From contig NZ_CP020867.1 in assembly GCF_002104335.1 (NCBI RefSeq), positions 1,059,206 through 1,091,205 of the forward strand: a DNA stretch of 32,000 bases. The letters are read 5' to 3'. A program made the translations under genes and the position numbers. Shown here one piece after another: positions 25,701 through 29,484 of this stretch. How positions within the stretch are numbered: the first letter of the stretch is position 1; every line of letters begins with the position of its first letter. The notes below the pieces were generated by a model that was given only the letters and a program-made list of their open reading frames with translations, had not been told where the DNA came from and searched no databases. This DNA comes from Campylobacter cuniculorum DSM 23162 = LMG 24588 (lineage in GTDB: Bacteria; Campylobacterota; Campylobacteria; Campylobacterales; Campylobacteraceae).

Positions 25701-26157
25701 CAAATATATCTTAAATGATAGGGAATTTTTTGAAAAAAACAATATAGAACTTAAAAATTGTAATATATATAAGCTAGAACATTTTCAAAGAAAAGAAGAG
25801 TATAAAACACAAAATCCCATGATTAAACAACACCCTATCTTAGCCTATAATGATACTATACAAATTTTATGTGAATATGCAAATGGGATTTATAATACTA
25901 TAAAAAATGAAAGAGCTCATCTCATAGAAGATAGACAAAAGGCAAGAAGATTGATGGAAAATTTAGAAGCTATAGGACAACATAATTTAGAAGTGATGTA
26001 TAAGGGGATAGGGGACGAAAAGACAAATGATAAAAGTAAGATGAAAGAAAATGAGGAAGAAAGCGATGATGCTAGTAAAGCCCAAGATTATTCTAATAAA
26101 TTCATAGGCAGACTAGCCACGATTATAATCATGGAAGATGGTTTATATATAGGATGA
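22699..26157 (+). CDS. 1152-aa K/N/E/I/Y-rich protein of unknown function, largest gene of the island (candidate cargo/effector)
   Basis: Long uninterrupted ORF with an ATGA overlap to the upstream gene. No motif I can assign. The C-terminal ~85 aa are repeated as a separate 86-aa ORF at 27477. Confidence 0.6.
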   Translation: MKIKNFTLITSNHNLEIALKNLTKNANKIIFICGDFDGYKEAKNSLYQTLHTIEDDFKSDNTKAFKIIHLNQANKDEITKEQNFTSDKNLSSIKKIIYNNLKLLNNAINQNENKTLNKIIDENNEKNIENFLKEIQKELNTLLKNIKESNYFEQEIKPKIQVALDTLFNTLLKNITQSNDDEYKQIIRAVAKFFINILDSITNLKKPISLIKKNPYVFVVNTLFEAYNSYSEYEEYKEKKYYYDFAYPLLELITSKLYPIIALCNEEILSDVLIIDDKILLDFSSYIDAPSISLYRNSFYKIILDEEFQGIFDNFLENNQKFENEKSDDTLLVNSSLNNSDTTLKKAINLNIFELHHFFYAEYPDLNSSMLVEMILDKKNADQINTSKMGKNYLFITNPPQLNNAGLCEDLYQKKLGVKIKNRPKALTKNEKLGLKEKFPSKRDYGSYFIERDVKNEDDFVLQLCPFVKLDGQIYQQYKEYFNFYNQTYSWLKFYSLECINESLKYKEYKQDFAYIDSFFKSPKELEEISKKEKAKAEEYVRLFNDYLDNINSYYDQIQSNLDFKKYSPLTVVLLTLTLYVLQKDLAFTQEYSPGVKNIVIPNLDYGDEVISLNYQRIKIPNYFKKYILFIPDDIYFYDNDKKIYIFLSKELNKNKKEDEVIYLDELAKAMFENDFEEEDQTYVNFLNTLNEGFDEEIEFEENIQTDQTLPSKKDLDKSIQDIMLDNELAKLSIDITFFNIIKQLFPFTEFFMSQPDFFKKMILFFIDSNFDKKHYGNKLFSSFKAHFFKELGIFYALSPKGRFIKINPKSKKPLNKLFLYQIGTNYYYFNQSEYASKLKKSKGFSRLDKAKQIHLISKVRKQLALDFSIKMSQNLSGDVLKNLAGSFIDTLLPTNYERLKILYEKLMYEKFTYNYDFPLAVKKEEYMTYPLLINSRFMSFDLSRFIFGSLLCTGGLNYYPSIACTTTSDEAKEFALKRLLSYIILDEKRSAFMEDKINEGKYILNDREFFEKNNIELKNCNIYKLEHFQRKEEYKTQNPMIKQHPILAYNDTIQILCEYANGIYNTIKNERAHLIEDRQKARRLMENLEAIGQHNLEVMYKGIGDEKTNDKSKMKENEEESDDASKAQDYSNKFIGRLATIIIMEDGLYIG

Positions 26158-27459
26158 AAGGATAAAAATGAGTGAAACTTATGAAATTTATACACCTAAT
26201 GGAATTATATTAGATGTAGAAAAAGAAACGAATAAAATTTTATTAGATGATAGAGGAGCCAAAGTAGGCAAATACACCCAAGAATATTCTAAAGCCCTTT
26301 TTGAAGCTGATCGTATATTAAGAAATTCCCCCTATATCAATTATCAACCCCAATACCTAGATCCTAACCTCAATACAGGGCAAAGATCTACTTTGCTTGA
26401 ATTTAAAGATTGGCAAAAGATTTATTTAAAAGATCCTATAAAAGGAGCGATTGCTCCTTGGACTAAAGCAGAAAAAGCTTATTATAAATCTTTAAAAACT
26501 AAAAAAGAAAGATATAAATATTTAGTTATTAGAAGTGGCATAAGAAGTGTTGTTATAGATATACCTTATGATGCTATAGGAGCTGTAGATGAAAAAGGAA
26601 ATGTAGATTCTCAATATGAAGAATTATATAGAGAAGTAGATGATAATAAAAACAGTCTAAGATCAAGTTTATTTCATAATGAATGGGGTATGGCAGCAGG
26701 AATATTGGGTGATTATAAATATCTGGCTAATGATATGTCTCAAAATGGTTTTAATGCAAGATTTATCCAAGCGACTATACTTTATATACAACTCAGTGGA
26801 GGAAGTAGTATACTAGACAAACCTAATTTATTAGGTGCTATTTATGGTTATGCAGATATTGCAGTAGGAAGTGGTTTAGTAGGAGTGCATAAAAATCCTT
26901 TAAGAGAACAAGAGATTAAAACTTTAGCTAAGACTTTAAAGCCTGATGAATTTGGTATGCTTCCTTTTATAGATGAAATTATGGGAGTGGATTGGGTGAT
27001 TGATTATAACAAATATGATATAGCTAGTGATCAATTTGGAAGTATGTATAGAGCCTTAAGAAGTGATGTGGTTGAGGGTAAAATAAAAGATCCAAGGGAT
27101 GTAGATTCTACTTATGAAAGCAGAAGGGAATTTGATCGTCATAGGGGAGGGTATAAAAATGGCATGCTACAAGGCTATGGAACCGATACACCTAATGATT
27201 GGAGTGAGGAAAGAGCACAACTCTTTAATGATACCTTAATACTTCATGCCAAACTCGCAGCCCTAACTCCTCCTCAAGGTTATCCTAATGCCCCTTATTA
27301 TTTTACCCCTGAAAACCTAGAATGGTATTATAAAAGACATAAGCTTGACAGACTTCTTGATCCAAGAATTCCTGCTATATATAGATATAATTTCCCAGAG
27401 GATTTAAGAGCTAAGATAAGAGCCTATGCTAAAGAGCATAATATAAAAGAATGAAGAAT
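25908..27459 (+). repeat. segmental duplication, unit 1 (3' end of the 1152-aa gene plus the 428-aa gene)
   Basis: Collinear with 27497..29484. Contains nucleotide-identical tracts: 25921..26010 = 27510..27599, 26399..26483 = 28040..28124, 27248..27303 = 29273..29328. Confidence 0.85.
26168..27454 (+). CDS. 428-aa protein, no signal peptide; paralog of the 580-aa lipoprotein
   Basis: Shares with 27737..29479 the blocks KYTQEY, EFKDWQKIYLKDPIKGAIAPWTKAEKAY, GMLPF-DE, EGKIKDPRDVDST, LAALTPPQGYPNAPYYFTPE, LDPRIPAIYR and AYAKEHNIKE*. Confidence 0.65.
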   Translation: MSETYEIYTPNGIILDVEKETNKILLDDRGAKVGKYTQEYSKALFEADRILRNSPYINYQPQYLDPNLNTGQRSTLLEFKDWQKIYLKDPIKGAIAPWTKAEKAYYKSLKTKKERYKYLVIRSGIRSVVIDIPYDAIGAVDEKGNVDSQYEELYREVDDNKNSLRSSLFHNEWGMAAGILGDYKYLANDMSQNGFNARFIQATILYIQLSGGSSILDKPNLLGAIYGYADIAVGSGLVGVHKNPLREQEIKTLAKTLKPDEFGMLPFIDEIMGVDWVIDYNKYDIASDQFGSMYRALRSDVVEGKIKDPRDVDSTYESRREFDRHRGGYKNGMLQGYGTDTPNDWSEERAQLFNDTLILHAKLAALTPPQGYPNAPYYFTPENLEWYYKRHKLDRLLDPRIPAIYRYNFPEDLRAKIRAYAKEHNIKE

Positions 27460-27737: not shown

Positions 27738-29484
27738 TGAATAAATTATTTTTAGCCACCTTACTTATTTTTACCCTAAATGCTTGCAAAGGAGAGGATA
27801 TGAACGATAAAGATATTAAAATGGTCCATACACCTAATGGAGGAGGTATAAAACTCAATACAAAAACCAATGAATTTTTATTCAATCAGCGAAAAAAACC
27901 CACTGGCAAATACACCCAAGAATACACCAAAGCTCTTTTAGAAGCTGTTCATATAGTCGATAATTCTCCTTATAAAAAATCTTATGAGCCTAAGTATTTA
28001 GATCCAGAATTTCATACAGGACAAAAATCCACTCTAGTGGAATTTAAAGATTGGCAAAAGATTTATTTAAAAGATCCTATAAAAGGAGCGATTGCTCCTT
28101 GGACTAAAGCAGAAAAAGCTTATTTTCATTCTTTAGATGGAGAAGGAAGGTATAATTATTTAGTAAAAAGAAGTGGCTTAGTATGCACTCCTGTAGATTT
28201 AAAAGATAGCACTTTAACAAGACCTAAAAGACCTAAAGAAAAAAGATTTATAAATGCTTATGAGCAAGGTATGAAAGATTATAAAGAAGCTAAGAGATTA
28301 GATTATAAAGGATATGATCTTTTTCAAAAAGCCATTAAGAATTTAAGCTATGCTTATGAAGAGGGTAAAGATTATAAAGCAGGACTTGCTTTAGCAGAAC
28401 TTGGATATTCAAAAGATTATTTTAGAGCTATTATAGGTAAATTAGATCAAGATGAAAATAATGAAGCTTTATTGGATAAATTGATTAATGAATTTTTAAA
28501 GGCTAATTATAGAAGTATAAGGATTTATGAAGAACTTATAGAAAAGTATGACTTAGGGGATGCTTATTGGGGTTTGTATGTTTATTCGCGTAAGATAGAA
28601 GATACAGTATTTGATGATAGATTTTATTTTGTTCAGCTTGAAGATAGCAGTGAAGAGCTTTATAAAAATGCTTTTGAACATGGAGCTTATGGAGCTTTTG
28701 GTGCTAAGGCAAATACTATATATTCTGATCTAATTGCAGGAGAATATCAACTTTGCTTAGGTATCTTGGGTAATAAAAAGGCTTTTTATGATGCAGCCAT
28801 AGGGCTTAGTGATTCTGGTTTAAAATCAAGAGGCTTTCAAGCTCTTTGGCTTGGAGTGCAATTAGGAGATAAAAAATGTTTAGAAAGATTGTATCATCCT
28901 TTATATGGAATACATAAAAATCCTTTAAAACAACAACTCATCAAAGACTTTGCTAAAAATCCTCCTTATGATAAATACGGAATGCTTCCTTTCTTAGATG
29001 AGTTAATCTCTACAGAATGGATTATAGATTCAAATGAATATGATTTTATTAGTGATGTCGATAATGGTGTAATGAGAACATTCTTAAATGAAATCGATGA
29101 AGGCAAAATAAAAGATCCAAGAGATGTGGATTCTACTCCTGAAAGTAGATGGGAATTCGATAAATATTTAACTGGCAACAAGACCGGCTTTGTAAGAGCT
29201 TATAGTTATGATATACCCAATCACTGGAGTGAAGCAGATGTAGAAATTTATTTAGAAGAGCTTTATTTACAAGCCAAACTCGCAGCCCTAACTCCTCCTC
29301 AAGGTTATCCTAATGCCCCTTATTATTTCACACCTGAAAGACTAGAATGGATTTATAAAAAAGGAGACTTAGATGCTAAACTTGATCCAAGAATCCCAGC
29401 TATTTATAGAGCTAACTTTCCTGAAGAGCTTAGAGCTAAGATACAAGCCTATGCTAAAGAGCATAATATAAAAGAGTGAAGAAT
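27497..29484 (+). repeat. segmental duplication, unit 2 (86-aa ORF plus the 580-aa gene)
   Basis: See unit 1. This unit is longer because of an N-terminal signal-peptide extension and a central ~150-aa insertion. Confidence 0.85.
27737..29479 (+). CDS. 580-aa predicted lipoprotein, paralog of the 428-aa protein with a helical-repeat (Sel1/TPR-like, tentative) insertion
   Basis: Signal MNKLFLATLLIFTLNAC (lipobox LNAC, Cys17). The central region is rich in A/G/Y/L helical-pair patterns (YEEGKDYKAGLALAELGY, FQALWLGVQLGDKKCLERLY). The N- and C-terminal blocks are shared with 26168..27454. Confidence 0.65.
   Translation: MNKLFLATLLIFTLNACKGEDMNDKDIKMVHTPNGGGIKLNTKTNEFLFNQRKKPTGKYTQEYTKALLEAVHIVDNSPYKKSYEPKYLDPEFHTGQKSTLVEFKDWQKIYLKDPIKGAIAPWTKAEKAYFHSLDGEGRYNYLVKRSGLVCTPVDLKDSTLTRPKRPKEKRFINAYEQGMKDYKEAKRLDYKGYDLFQKAIKNLSYAYEEGKDYKAGLALAELGYSKDYFRAIIGKLDQDENNEALLDKLINEFLKANYRSIRIYEELIEKYDLGDAYWGLYVYSRKIEDTVFDDRFYFVQLEDSSEELYKNAFEHGAYGAFGAKANTIYSDLIAGEYQLCLGILGNKKAFYDAAIGLSDSGLKSRGFQALWLGVQLGDKKCLERLYHPLYGIHKNPLKQQLIKDFAKNPPYDKYGMLPFLDELISTEWIIDSNEYDFISDVDNGVMRTFLNEIDEGKIKDPRDVDSTPESRWEFDKYLTGNKTGFVRAYSYDIPNHWSEADVEIYLEELYLQAKLAALTPPQGYPNAPYYFTPERLEWIYKKGDLDAKLDPRIPAIYRANFPEELRAKIQAYAKEHNIKE

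Follow-up and report, generated by a model that had tools for sequence, protein, structure and literature searches.

This work identifies the second of two collinear gene units in an accessory island of the Campylobacter cuniculorum chromosome as a translocated piece of ~2.1 kb (27497-29588) that derives from another module of this kind. On statistical evidence, short patches of it were overwritten by 428-type or resident sequence during or after joining. Unit 1 comprises the 3' end of a large gene and a 428-aa partner gene, and unit 2 comprises an 86-aa chimeric ORF and a 580-aa partner gene. Combined with a putative immunity-like role of the partner, this is the explanation that we consider, on balance, probable. 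The following features lie within the window, i.e. the whole stretch of 32,000 nt that was analysed.

21338..22702, + strand: 454-aa ORF, carrier module of type VI secretion effectors, based on fusions in other genomes
22699..26157, + strand: 1152-aa large gene of type A, a homologue of the C. jejuni CJ488_0947 and CJE1112/1113 type
25904..26157, + strand: 3' tail of the large gene with a counterpart in unit 2, from pairwise comparison
25919-26010, + strand: tract 1, 92 nt, exact match, counterpart of 27510-27599 with a 2-nt leftward extension
26101..26129, + strand: promoter-like element TTCATA-17 nt-TATAAT inside the tail-coding block, putative role, from a consensus scan
26168..27454, + strand: 428-aa partner gene of unit 1, CJE1110/1111/1138 and CJ488_0946/0965 family
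27455..27496, + strand: remnant of a 267-aa-family gene, comprising the spacer upstream of it and the opening 7 codons (ATGCAAAAAATACTTCAAATT, MQKILQI), from comparison with L002, L003, L005 and L012
27477..27737, + strand: 86-aa chimeric ORF in which 7 codons from the 267-family gene precede an orphan large-gene tail
27737..29479, + strand: 580-aa partner gene of unit 2, with a lipoprotein signal (MNKLFLATLLIFTLNAC)
28040..28124, + strand: tract 2, 85 nt, exact match to 26399-26483, encoding …EFKDWQKIYLKDPIKGAIAPWTKAEKAY
29273..29328, + strand: tract 3, 56 nt, exact match to 27248-27303, encoding …AKLAALTPPQGYPNAPYYF
29435..29479, + strand: 428-type sequence in place of the original 3' end of the 580-aa gene, from the three-way site test
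29487..29588, - strand: tagH 3' remnant, last 34 codons, from tblastn with the TagH-like protein of L001 (88% identity, E 1e-13)

The island carries type VI secretion effector genes and lies between tusA and a uracil-DNA glycosylase gene; it is an orphan island, remote from the core type VI genes. Many repeats occur throughout it. The operon runs from the 454-aa carrier module through the 1152-aa large gene to the 428-aa partner gene, and the stop of the 454-aa ORF overlaps the large-gene start. Elsewhere this module occurs as a fusion: C. coli (L018) and C. lari (L012) carry it joined to Lipase_3/Mbeg1, and in H. cinaedi pHci1 its fusion partner is a Tae4 amidase (PF14113, E 2e-17). It is also found under the annotation 'glycoside hydrolase family protein' in C. 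coli plasmids. The carrier module ties the operon to type VI secretion.

The large protein is 87-92% identical to hundreds of Campylobacter proteins, every one named hypothetical, and 89% identical to plasmid copies adjoining tagH/tssM. No match was found in Pfam, NCBIfam, PADLOC, PHROG or PDB, and its AlphaFold model (pLDDT 35) is unusable. The type A protein ends in an invariant tail, …FIGRLATIIIMEDGLYIG. The 3' tail of the gene consists of tract 1, a hypervariable acidic linker (~26011-26065) and a conserved tail block. Tail type covaries with the signal peptide of the partner: where the tail is of type A or B (…EDGLYxG), the partner lacks one, and where it is of type C (…ERPY), the partner is a lipoprotein. 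In type C large proteins, an additional hydrophobic segment (residues 801-825) could place the C-terminus in the periplasm.

The preliminary description had compared the locus to the orphan-module arrangement of polymorphic toxin loci, with the caveat that its duplicated module is not variable but conserved. The layout stands insofar as a 5'-truncated large-gene piece is followed by a variant downstream gene. The caveat proves to be the key point, since the large protein is most conserved at its C-terminus and has no variable toxin domain there. As a candidate polymorphic toxin gene, the large gene was rejected on this defining feature.

At E<=0.001, the 428-aa protein, which has no signal peptide, has 2376 relatives; the 120 listed are all from Campylobacter, with a top match at 94% identity. 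At the 50% identity level, there are only 54 representatives among 1.84 billion proteins. Its AlphaFold model (pLDDT 84, pTM 0.88) is mainly helical and has no fold match in PDB or among viral structures. For both the large protein and the partner, searches of profile libraries and PDB returned nothing, and profile searches found no Sel1 or other immunity family. The partner always lies directly downstream of the large gene, and a comparison of types A and B shows stronger conservation of the partner (63%) than of the large protein (26-42%). Many charged and aromatic residues are invariant in its family.

Our best guess, held with low confidence, is that the partner has an immunity-like role. 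The large protein might be a membrane-active cargo or a membrane-anchored protein, the partner might bind or neutralise its conserved C-terminal region, and extra partner copies might then be retained like orphan immunity genes. A possible, if doubtful, alternative is that the members of the 428/580-aa family are themselves enzymes or effectors, which would act in the cytoplasm or be exported as lipoproteins. In that case, the large protein would serve as carrier, scaffold or mobile-element component, e.g. conjugation-related, and the arrays described below would be effector or paralogue expansions. Consistent with this are the strongly conserved, motif-rich ends and invariant acidic residues of the partner family, its members both with and without signal peptides, and the detection of 428-aa homologues by proteomics in cell pellets of C. 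jejuni 00-1597 (PMC5749857). The pair also persists in the type VI-negative CJIE3 of RM1221 and beside conjugation genes, including a TraG N-terminal-domain gene. Judged by size (428-580 aa), conservation and invariant residues, the partner looks more like an enzyme than like a typical immunity protein. However, a directly downstream position with coupled translation, stand-alone orphans and arrays of diverged copies beside one large gene suit an immunity-like role better, and profile and fold searches recognised no catalytic fold or family.

On 38 Campylobacter plasmids, and also in C. lari, homologous pairs adjoin tagH/tssM, and plasmids have 2-8 matching places apiece. The partner gene also forms arrays of 2-5 copies on Campylobacter plasmids, every copy accompanied by a stub of the large gene. 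The C. coli plasmid pGPT21-005_1 carries five copies (one frameshifted), each preceded by a mini-ORF of 20-23 codons that encodes the tail of the large protein. Stand-alone partner copies occur at core-genome sites (L005). Extra copies may always keep a stub because it carries the expression signals of the partner, which would be the promoter-like element and the coupled start. The element lies 39 nt upstream of the 428-aa gene start and has 10/12 consensus matches (9/12 at its counterpart, 27690-27718); the same hexamers are present in every stub of the five-copy array. Overall, the scan gave no enrichment over shuffled sequence and the element is indistinguishable from background in A+T-rich DNA, so it is only a lead.

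Exact comparison confirms the three perfectly identical tracts of the preliminary description, the first being 92 nt long rather than the 90 nt given, as well as the collinearity of the units with mosaic identity (alignment offsets of 1589, about 1640 and 2025 nt). Divergence is not uniform: identity amounts to 84% across the 883 alignable positions without gaps and to 78% when the tracts are left out. Under a null of independent sites (20,000 simulations), the longest identical run had a mean of 31 nt, a 95th percentile of 44 nt and a maximum of 76 nt. The runs of 85 and 92 nt thus exceed the independent-site expectation, and three long runs jointly do so even more. Among degenerate codons with identical amino acids, synonymous change was found in 0/72 inside the tracts vs 41/145 (28%) outside (P = 4e-11).

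In a three-way site test, unit 2 matches the orthologue at 343 sites and the paralogue at 78, the latter clustered in patches. In tract 2, only four sites are informative, all of them matching the paralogue; here both units have a GCG allele that is absent from all other copies, unit 2 differs from its orthologues L005 and L006 at 4-8 sites, and L006 (C. coli) has the plasmid-type allele. A paralogue-like patch spans 29287-29350, and a run of 16 informative sites at the 3' end of the 580-aa gene matches the paralogue, not the orthologue. Mosaicism is pervasive among all copies (run-length permutation test), and P0138 is a chimeric protein with its breakpoint inside the tract-2 block. Recombination or gene conversion after divergence, as first proposed, best explains the tracts, because synonymous change is absent from them, alleles are unique to the pair and patches match the paralogue over the orthologue.

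It is unlikely that the tracts arose from strong sequence constraint alone, i.e. protein motifs plus codon- or nucleotide-level selection with no conversion between the copies. The tracts are indeed the most conserved DNA blocks of the family in all species and plasmids examined and are not private to the pair; within them, 79-89% of codons are identical among ten other copies, and in tract 1 L002 and L001 are 99% and 98% identical to unit 2. Since the tracts coincide with family-wide conserved blocks, part of the identity stems from constraint and not from recent conversion. However, the other copies differ at 3-8 sites per tract and the in-genome pair at none, and it is precisely in these patches that unit 2 differs from its orthologues. 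The pair-specific alleles and the lack of synonymous change likewise oppose constraint as the sole cause.

The junction and the flanks bear on the origin of unit 2. The gap of ~37 bp between the units (27460-27496) is real, but it is not a neutral spacer: it holds a ribosome-site region together with the opening 7 codons of a different gene. In L002, L003, L005 and L012, the start MQKILQI opens a gene of 262-270 aa, and this 267-aa-family gene normally comes after the 428-aa gene. The left end of unit 2 is joined to codon 7 of this gene at 27496/27497, with a 4-nt microhomology (AAAT). The large-gene tail in the 86-aa ORF (last ~240 nt) is type-A-like up to ~27693 and type C at its end (…TTIIAERTY), a variant that accompanies 580-type genes in C. 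taeniopygiae. The stop of the ORF overlaps the 580-aa gene start (TAATG); likewise, a 1237-aa large gene of C. taeniopygiae (L010) that ends in …GRLATTIIVERPY overlaps the start of a 580-type gene.

The 580-aa protein has ~150 extra helical residues in its middle and is 39% identical overall to the 428-aa protein. Its gene shows 89% DNA identity to a stand-alone gene between radA and atpB in C. jejuni W1 and 91% to a stand-alone gene on a contig of C. coli LMG 9860, and in similarity painting unit 2 is nearest to L005 and L006 over 27715-29427. Its 3' end runs into a flank resembling that of plasmid copies (29430-29579, 93-96% identical to L001). A tagH remnant is present after unit 2 and absent after unit 1; on plasmids and in CJPI-1, the partner gene and tagH abut tail to tail. 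The remnant marks the right end of the segment that brought unit 2.

These observations contradict the earlier proposal of a tandem segmental duplication of unit 1. In such a plain in-place duplication of the large-gene 3' end and the 428-aa gene, unit 2 would have diverged after copying, acquiring an insertion and a signal peptide, with occasional homogenisation. Adjacent, collinear units in the same orientation agree with it, and pGPT21-005_1 carries true tandem arrays of such units. Yet the junction contains a 267-family gene start instead of a joint between unit end and unit start, the stub ends in a type-C tail, tagH follows unit 2 only, and unit 2 is closer to genes of other species than to unit 1 (about 75-80% identity), which makes this duplication very unlikely. 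An assembly artefact that collapsed or joined repeats in this repeat-rich island can be dismissed, because two complete C. cuniculorum assemblies (ARJ and QOR accessions; identical proteins on CP063091.1 by exact protein matching) agree in these proteins and their order, and the junctions lie within unique sequence.

The translocated piece contains ~240 nt from the end of a large gene, followed by a lipoprotein-type partner gene and the tagH 3' end. On the statistical evidence, its overwritten patches are the first ~100 nt of the stub, 28040-28124, about 29087-29110, 29273-29350 and 29435-29479. The 580-aa protein has two accessions per assembly, which implies a second identical copy in the chromosome (QOR05004/ARJ55785); this copy is presumably the source, and we infer the direction and timing of the transfer. 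The conserved blocks may act as anchors for homologous recombination, by which co-resident modules could exchange either the variable middle of the partner gene or the complete gene together with a few final large-gene codons.

The large gene and its partner correspond to a function-blank pair of CJIE3/CJPI-1 (CJE1137/1138 type) that flanks tagH there and on type VI megaplasmids. CJE1137/CJE1138 and CJE1110-1113 (CJ488_0964/0965 and 0947/0946) are direct homologues, the type A pair at 87-94% identity, with the same gene order and tagH adjacency. The pairs CJ488_0947/0946 and 0964/0965 are given in Table 2 of PMC8285248 with no function assigned, and RM1221 likewise has two partner copies, CJE1110 and CJE1111 (PMC8285248; PMC3667781). 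Neither paper gives a function for these genes, and arrays, stubs and mosaicism are absent from their account. Unlike CJIE3/CJPI-1, C. cuniculorum joins two module types in an orphan island off the core type VI genes.

The orphan toxin-tip/immunity modules of cdiA/rhs loci are similar in that a 5'-truncated fragment of the upstream gene and then a variant of the downstream gene follow the main pair in the same orientation, and in that fragment and main gene have a conserved block in common, so that a swap by homologous recombination is possible. In those loci, a conserved motif in the fragment is followed by a toxin domain that is variable and differs from the main one, and the immunity proteins are small. 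Here, by contrast, the fragment encodes the best-conserved portion of the large protein, with differences confined to roughly the last 8 residues; a toxin domain is not recognisable, and the partner has 428-580 aa.

Orphan immunity genes and immunity-gene arrays are known at type VI effector loci, such as the auxiliary clusters of Vibrio cholerae and the three tandem immunity genes after PldB of Pseudomonas aeruginosa. Compared to these orphan-immunity loci, the immunity role is only putative here, no Sel1 or other immunity family was detected and the signal peptide varies among members. Alike are the diverged tandem copies of the downstream gene after one large gene, the 3'-end remnants between copies, the stand-alone copies elsewhere in the genome and the location in a type VI island. 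The locus fits the familiar pattern of recombining effector loci, but in a protein family without an assigned function.

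The two units form a collinear pair with mosaic identity, as the preliminary description had it, in a window with a G+C content of 29%. The units, their promoter-like elements and the three tracts that are identical between them are as follows:

25904-29484: two collinear units
Unit 1: last ~250 nt of the 1152-aa ORF (22699-26157; the large gene) and the 428-aa ORF (26168-27454; its partner gene)
Unit 2: 86-aa ORF (27477-27737) and 580-aa ORF (27737-29479; a lipoprotein partner gene)
26101-26129: promoter-like TTCATA-17 nt-TATAAT in unit 1, 10/12 consensus matches, ~40 nt 5' of the partner start
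27690-27718: promoter-like counterpart in the unit 2 stub (5'-truncated large-gene tail), 9/12 consensus matches
25919-26010, 26399-26483 and 27248-27303: tracts 1, 2 and 3 in unit 1

By exact protein look-up, the window lies on the C. cuniculorum chromosome CP063091.1, and identical proteins are on record from one further complete assembly. All three exact tracts are real and span 92 nt (the 90 nt first reported, extended by 2 nt), 85 nt and 56 nt, respectively. Outside the tracts, the units are 78% identical over alignable positions, and simulation with independent sites gives an expected longest identical run of ~31 nt (95th percentile 44). Synonymous changes occur in 0 of the 72 amino-acid-identical degenerate codons inside the tracts versus 41 of 145 outside (P = 4e-11), so protein-level constraint alone is insufficient to explain the identity.

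The tracts coincide with the most DNA-conserved blocks of the family: among ten further copies, drawn from four species and a number of plasmids, 79-89% of the codons are identical there versus 30-65% elsewhere, and plasmid copies of tract 1 are 98-99% identical to unit 2. Part of the tract identity is therefore family-wide. The in-genome pair is closer still: some alleles are unique to units 1 and 2, namely GCG in GGAGCGATT (tract 2) and those at three positions where tract 1 begins, and in tract 2 there are 4-8 differences between unit 2 and its orthologues. When sites were compared between unit 2, unit 1 and the C. jejuni W1 orthologue, unit 2 matched the orthologue at 343 informative sites and the paralogue at 78, and the 78 form clusters at 28063-28090, 29087-29110, 29287-29350 and 29435-29473, with 16 consecutive sites in the last cluster. 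A run-length permutation test detected mosaic segments between many other copy pairs; for the window pair, it is unreliable because the non-homologous middle is forced into alignment, and it was replaced by the synonymous-site and three-way site tests. In the tract-2 block, the C. coli LMG 9860 orthologue carries the allele typical of plasmid copies of C. coli and C. jejuni, which points to recurrent conversion between co-resident paralogues. The database protein P0138 is a chimera with its breakpoint inside the same block; of its 382 aa, the first 94 derive from the partner family and give way at ...YLKDPIKGA|... to ~250 residues from the C-terminus of a large protein. The proposed gene conversion or recombination between the copies is thus supported by paralogue-like patches, absent synonymous divergence and pair-only alleles. 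The aligned sequences argue strongly for such conversion at 29435-29479 and the tracts taken jointly, and less so for tract 2 alone, with its 4 informative sites.

An in-place tandem duplication, the original label for the two units, is wrong in detail, as unit 2 is closest to the W1 and LMG 9860 loci and the junction holds the start of another gene. The reported spacer of ~37 nt is present but is not a plain gap: together with codons 1-7 of the 86-aa ORF (ATGCAAAAAATACTTCAAATT, MQKILQI), it constitutes the opening of the 262-270-aa gene (267-family gene) that lies 3' of the partner gene in loci L002, L003, L005 (C. jejuni W1) and L012 (C. lari). Past codon 7, the sequence switches to the large-gene tail at an AAAT microhomology. 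The resulting stub, which ends in ...TTIIAERTY, has a stop codon that overlaps the start of the 580-aa gene (TAATG). The same kind of overlap with a 580-type gene is seen in C. taeniopygiae for a 1237-aa large gene ending in ...TTIIVERPY, so this tail variant is native to 580-type partners; as the 5' part of the stub is type-A-like, resembling the resident large gene, the stub itself is a hybrid.

Over 27715-29427, unit 2 is closest to a 585-aa lipoprotein gene of C. jejuni W1 (89%) and to a contig from C. coli LMG 9860 (91%), with unit 1 at only ~70-80%. The W1 gene is located between radA and atpB and is followed by a 262-aa 267-family member; these two genes (L005, 10001-12577) stand alone amid the core genes, and the large gene is absent nearby. 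Directly 3' of the 580-aa gene, the opposite strand carries a remnant of tagH, its terminal 34 codons (88% identity, E 1e-13), and the final ~45 nt of the 580-aa gene with its flank show 93-96% identity to the plasmid order of a 428-type gene followed by tagH. The junction, the tail variant, the relatives of the 580-aa gene and the tagH remnant together show that unit 2 did not arise by copying unit 1 in place. Judged from these alignments, it is a ~2.1-kb piece of another module, which either would have inserted into the 267-family gene of the resident module or would have remained there after a deletion. Per assembly, the 580-aa protein has two accessions and the 428-aa and 86-aa proteins have one each, which implies a second identical 580-aa copy elsewhere in the chromosome, the likely source of unit 2. 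This protein-identical copy (QOR05004/ARJ55785) lies near another lipase fragment (ARJ55779) on the same chromosome. An exact look-up of the 86-aa ORF returned the window locus only, and two metagenome scans found neither a match to the exact unit-2 junction nor relatives of the 580-aa protein. The origin of unit 2 is a patchwork.

Extra partner copies with their own stubs also occur in other replicons. On C. coli plasmid pGPT21-005_1, a single 1311-aa large gene precedes five partner copies (one frameshifted), and each extra copy has a 5' mini-ORF of 20-23 codons (MNFITRLATTIIIEDGLYMG) that encodes the large-protein tail. The five tandem units of this array (6983-13702) have a period of ~1360 nt, the frameshifted copy is the fourth, and the mini-ORFs encode the last ~19 residues of the large protein. 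Plasmids have 2-8 matching places each, and RM1221 has two adjacent partner copies. Taken together, the arrays, the plasmid counts and RM1221 make copy-number variation with the stub kept a property of the family. The plasmid stubs contain the same hexamers (TTCATA/TATAAT) as the window, and the stub element could be a candidate promoter of the partner's own, a lead only given a scan unenriched versus shuffled sequence.

The partner family is narrow, with 54 representatives at 50% identity among 1.84 billion proteins. The ORFs of the window had no match in Pfam, NCBIfam, PADLOC, PHROGs or PDB sequences (ten ORFs in profile searches, with nothing usable), and the 1152-aa protein and the 86-aa ORF had no Pfam or NCBIfam match at E<=0.1. 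When PDB sequences were searched with the 428-, 580-, 1152- and 454-aa proteins and with the family profile, only chance matches emerged, and the window gave no Rfam or tRNA match. No profile supports the UniRef names 'Thioredoxin reductase' (428- and 580-aa proteins) and 'Lysozyme' (454-aa protein), which were rejected. For the 428-aa protein, AlphaFold produced a confident, mainly helical model (pLDDT 84, pTM 0.88), and Foldseek searches of PDB and BFVD gave best E-values of 0.43 and 0.2, respectively, with TM-scores <0.16. The 1152-aa model has a pLDDT of 35 (18-sequence alignment). A second large-gene paralogue, P0197 (1135 aa; QOR03581/ARJ56082), is encoded on the same chromosome and differs almost only at ~555-655; the two C. 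cuniculorum paralogues thus differ mainly in an internal patch (residues ~555-655).

The large gene and the 428-aa gene are ~90% identical to a pair on 38 C. jejuni and C. coli megaplasmids, where the pair is single-copy, abuts tagH and tssM, and sits beside a TraG N-terminal-domain gene. In C. lari, the order is tssM, tagH, 217-aa, 1155-aa, 1160-aa, 428-aa and 270-aa genes, followed by conjugation genes. The linkage to type VI secretion (T6SS) consists of the partner abutting tagH/tssM on the plasmids and in C. lari, the tagH remnant in the window and the overlap with the 454-aa module; the pair is also kept in the type VI-negative CJIE3 of RM1221. In the literature, CJ488_0947/0946 correspond to RM1221 CJE1112/1113, with CJE1110 and CJE1111, and CJ488_0964/0965 correspond to CJE1137/1138, directly before TagH, with a blank function column in both cases (Robinson et al. 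2021 Table 2, PMC8285248). Orthologues of CJE1138 flank the T6SS cluster in most positive strains (Bleumink-Pluym et al. 2013, PMC3667781), homologues of CJE1110 and CJE1138 were seen by proteomics in C. jejuni 00-1597 (PMC5749857), and a complete T6SS is present in C. cuniculorum (PMC9676060).

The stop of the 454-aa ORF (21338-22702) overlaps the large-gene start. Elsewhere, this module is fused to Lipase_3/Mbeg1 (C. coli, C. lari), to a protein annotated as glycoside hydrolase (C. coli) and to a Tae4 amidase (PF14113, E 2e-17) in Helicobacter cinaedi pHci1, and these fusions tie the operon to type VI effectors. No Pfam or NCBIfam profile match was found for MIX, FIX, RIX, PAAR, DUF4123, DUF1795 or DUF2169. 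Residues ~155-240 of the 454-aa ORF (21800-22050) contain a stretch with spaced cysteines (ECIHGGKV...ACPNTIAGVSVPC...ISACITDKGF) that looks PAAR-like (DUF4280) by eye and for which no supporting profile or PDB sequence match was found. The 438-aa ORF (20032-21348) and the 454-aa ORF share 11 nt. Since C. lari and C. coli have the 454 module at the C-terminus of single 1155-1247-aa proteins, the two window ORFs may be a split or frameshifted effector. The H...NNC motifs of the 438-aa ORF recall papain-like or LRAT-type hydrolases, and it has a weak DUF2459 match (E 0.029).

Further repeats occur in the island. An N-terminal module (...THAFLGLTKGKSPDELDK...) is present four times (17768-18038, 18565-18835, 19194-19464 and 20035-20305), in three short ORFs and once at the start of the 438-aa ORF, and a multi-pass membrane ORF (MQIPIYSKLKAKLESKG...) is present three times at 87-99% identity (18130-18588, 19556-20035 and 31346-31816). 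Together they look like a series of truncated effector heads, every one with its putative membrane immunity gene. Mbeg1-like/class 3 lipase fragments (...GFSATLFYDKEKD[KR]FI[IV]GFRGTE; 29589-29904, 30242-30332 and 30675-31265) are 76-90% identical to each other, with small membrane ORFs between them. The tail of a 196-aa ORF, ...EFSKFMIV, is that of the repeated N-terminal module. The G+C content is 22-28% in the island (17600-32000) versus 30-37% in the flanking core genes (1-17000), and 31-32% in the two partner genes, above the rest of the island.

The large proteins are best conserved at their C-terminus: the C-terminal ~300 residues of types A and B are 42% identical versus 26-29% further upstream, and the last 19 residues are nearly invariant. 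A hydrophobic hairpin near residues 225-300 is strong in type B and C large proteins, type C has an extra hydrophobic segment (801-825), and the type A protein of the window has weak segments only. A signal peptide or lipobox is confined to the 580-aa member and some relatives, and the tail variant and the partner signal peptide covary. With low confidence, we suggest from these sequence features that the partner would bind the C-terminal region of the large protein in its compartment, in a putative immunity-like role. The partner may instead be an enzymatic or effector protein, as it is large, better conserved than the large protein and rich in invariant residues.

The conserved blocks are probably long enough to serve as anchors for homologous recombination, and such anchors would permit the variable middle of the partner to be swapped, or the entire partner along with the last large-gene codons. 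Recombination between the direct repeats of the window would join the resident large gene to a type-C tail and the 580-aa gene, or would alternatively produce 428/580 hybrids. A broader reading, which we regard as tentative and rather doubtful, is a new Campylobacter-restricted two-protein system of type VI/CJIE3 elements, in which a membrane-inserting large protein would have its invariant tail bound by a partner of new fold, with the tail-plus-partner cassette being swappable. If this two-protein reading holds, the tail variant, the large-protein topology and the partner location (cytoplasm or periplasmic lipoprotein) would shift together, and the stubs would maintain the expression of every additional partner copy and its readiness to recombine.

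The pair flanks the T6SS cluster in most positive strains, yet is left blank in all published tables, and the first characterisation of a Campylobacter T6SS cargo effector is very recent (bioRxiv 10.64898/2026.03.25.714310). The partner gene occurs in variable-copy arrays with a stub per extra copy, exchanges patches by recombination and has stand-alone copies at core-genome sites, which makes it a concrete candidate, open to testing, for an effector/immunity-like system that discriminates between strains in an important group of food-borne pathogens. These same properties explain the breaks of short-read assemblies at this family, where partial proteins on 1-5 kb contigs account for hundreds of matching database entries. 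The genome mechanics are familiar; the gene pair is widespread, lies next to the type VI cluster and is unstudied.

In polymorphic toxins, a large protein combines a conserved body with a variable C-terminal toxin domain. The layout of the locus agrees with the suggested orphan-module arrangement of such systems, since 27497-27737 contains just the tail of a large gene and precedes the 580-aa variant. The content does not: the C-terminus is the most conserved part, and neither a toxin domain nor a demarcating motif (VENN, PxxxxDPxGL, PAAR, Rhs repeats) was found in the 1152-aa or 86-aa proteins (Pfam/NCBIfam, E<=0.1). The locus was consequently filed under no named toxin family. By analogy, its layout resembles that of CDI/Rhs orphan modules and of the orphan immunity arrays of type VI loci. 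CDI/Rhs loci encode a small immunity protein, whereas the partner in the window, positioned 3' with coupling, is 428-580 aa long with an unmatched fold; it has no Pfam match to Sel1 or TPR, and Tli5-type periplasmic immunity proteins are defined by Sel1 repeats and a signal peptide. Set against these systems, the locus is a recombining locus of a known kind in an uncharacterised, Campylobacter-restricted family.
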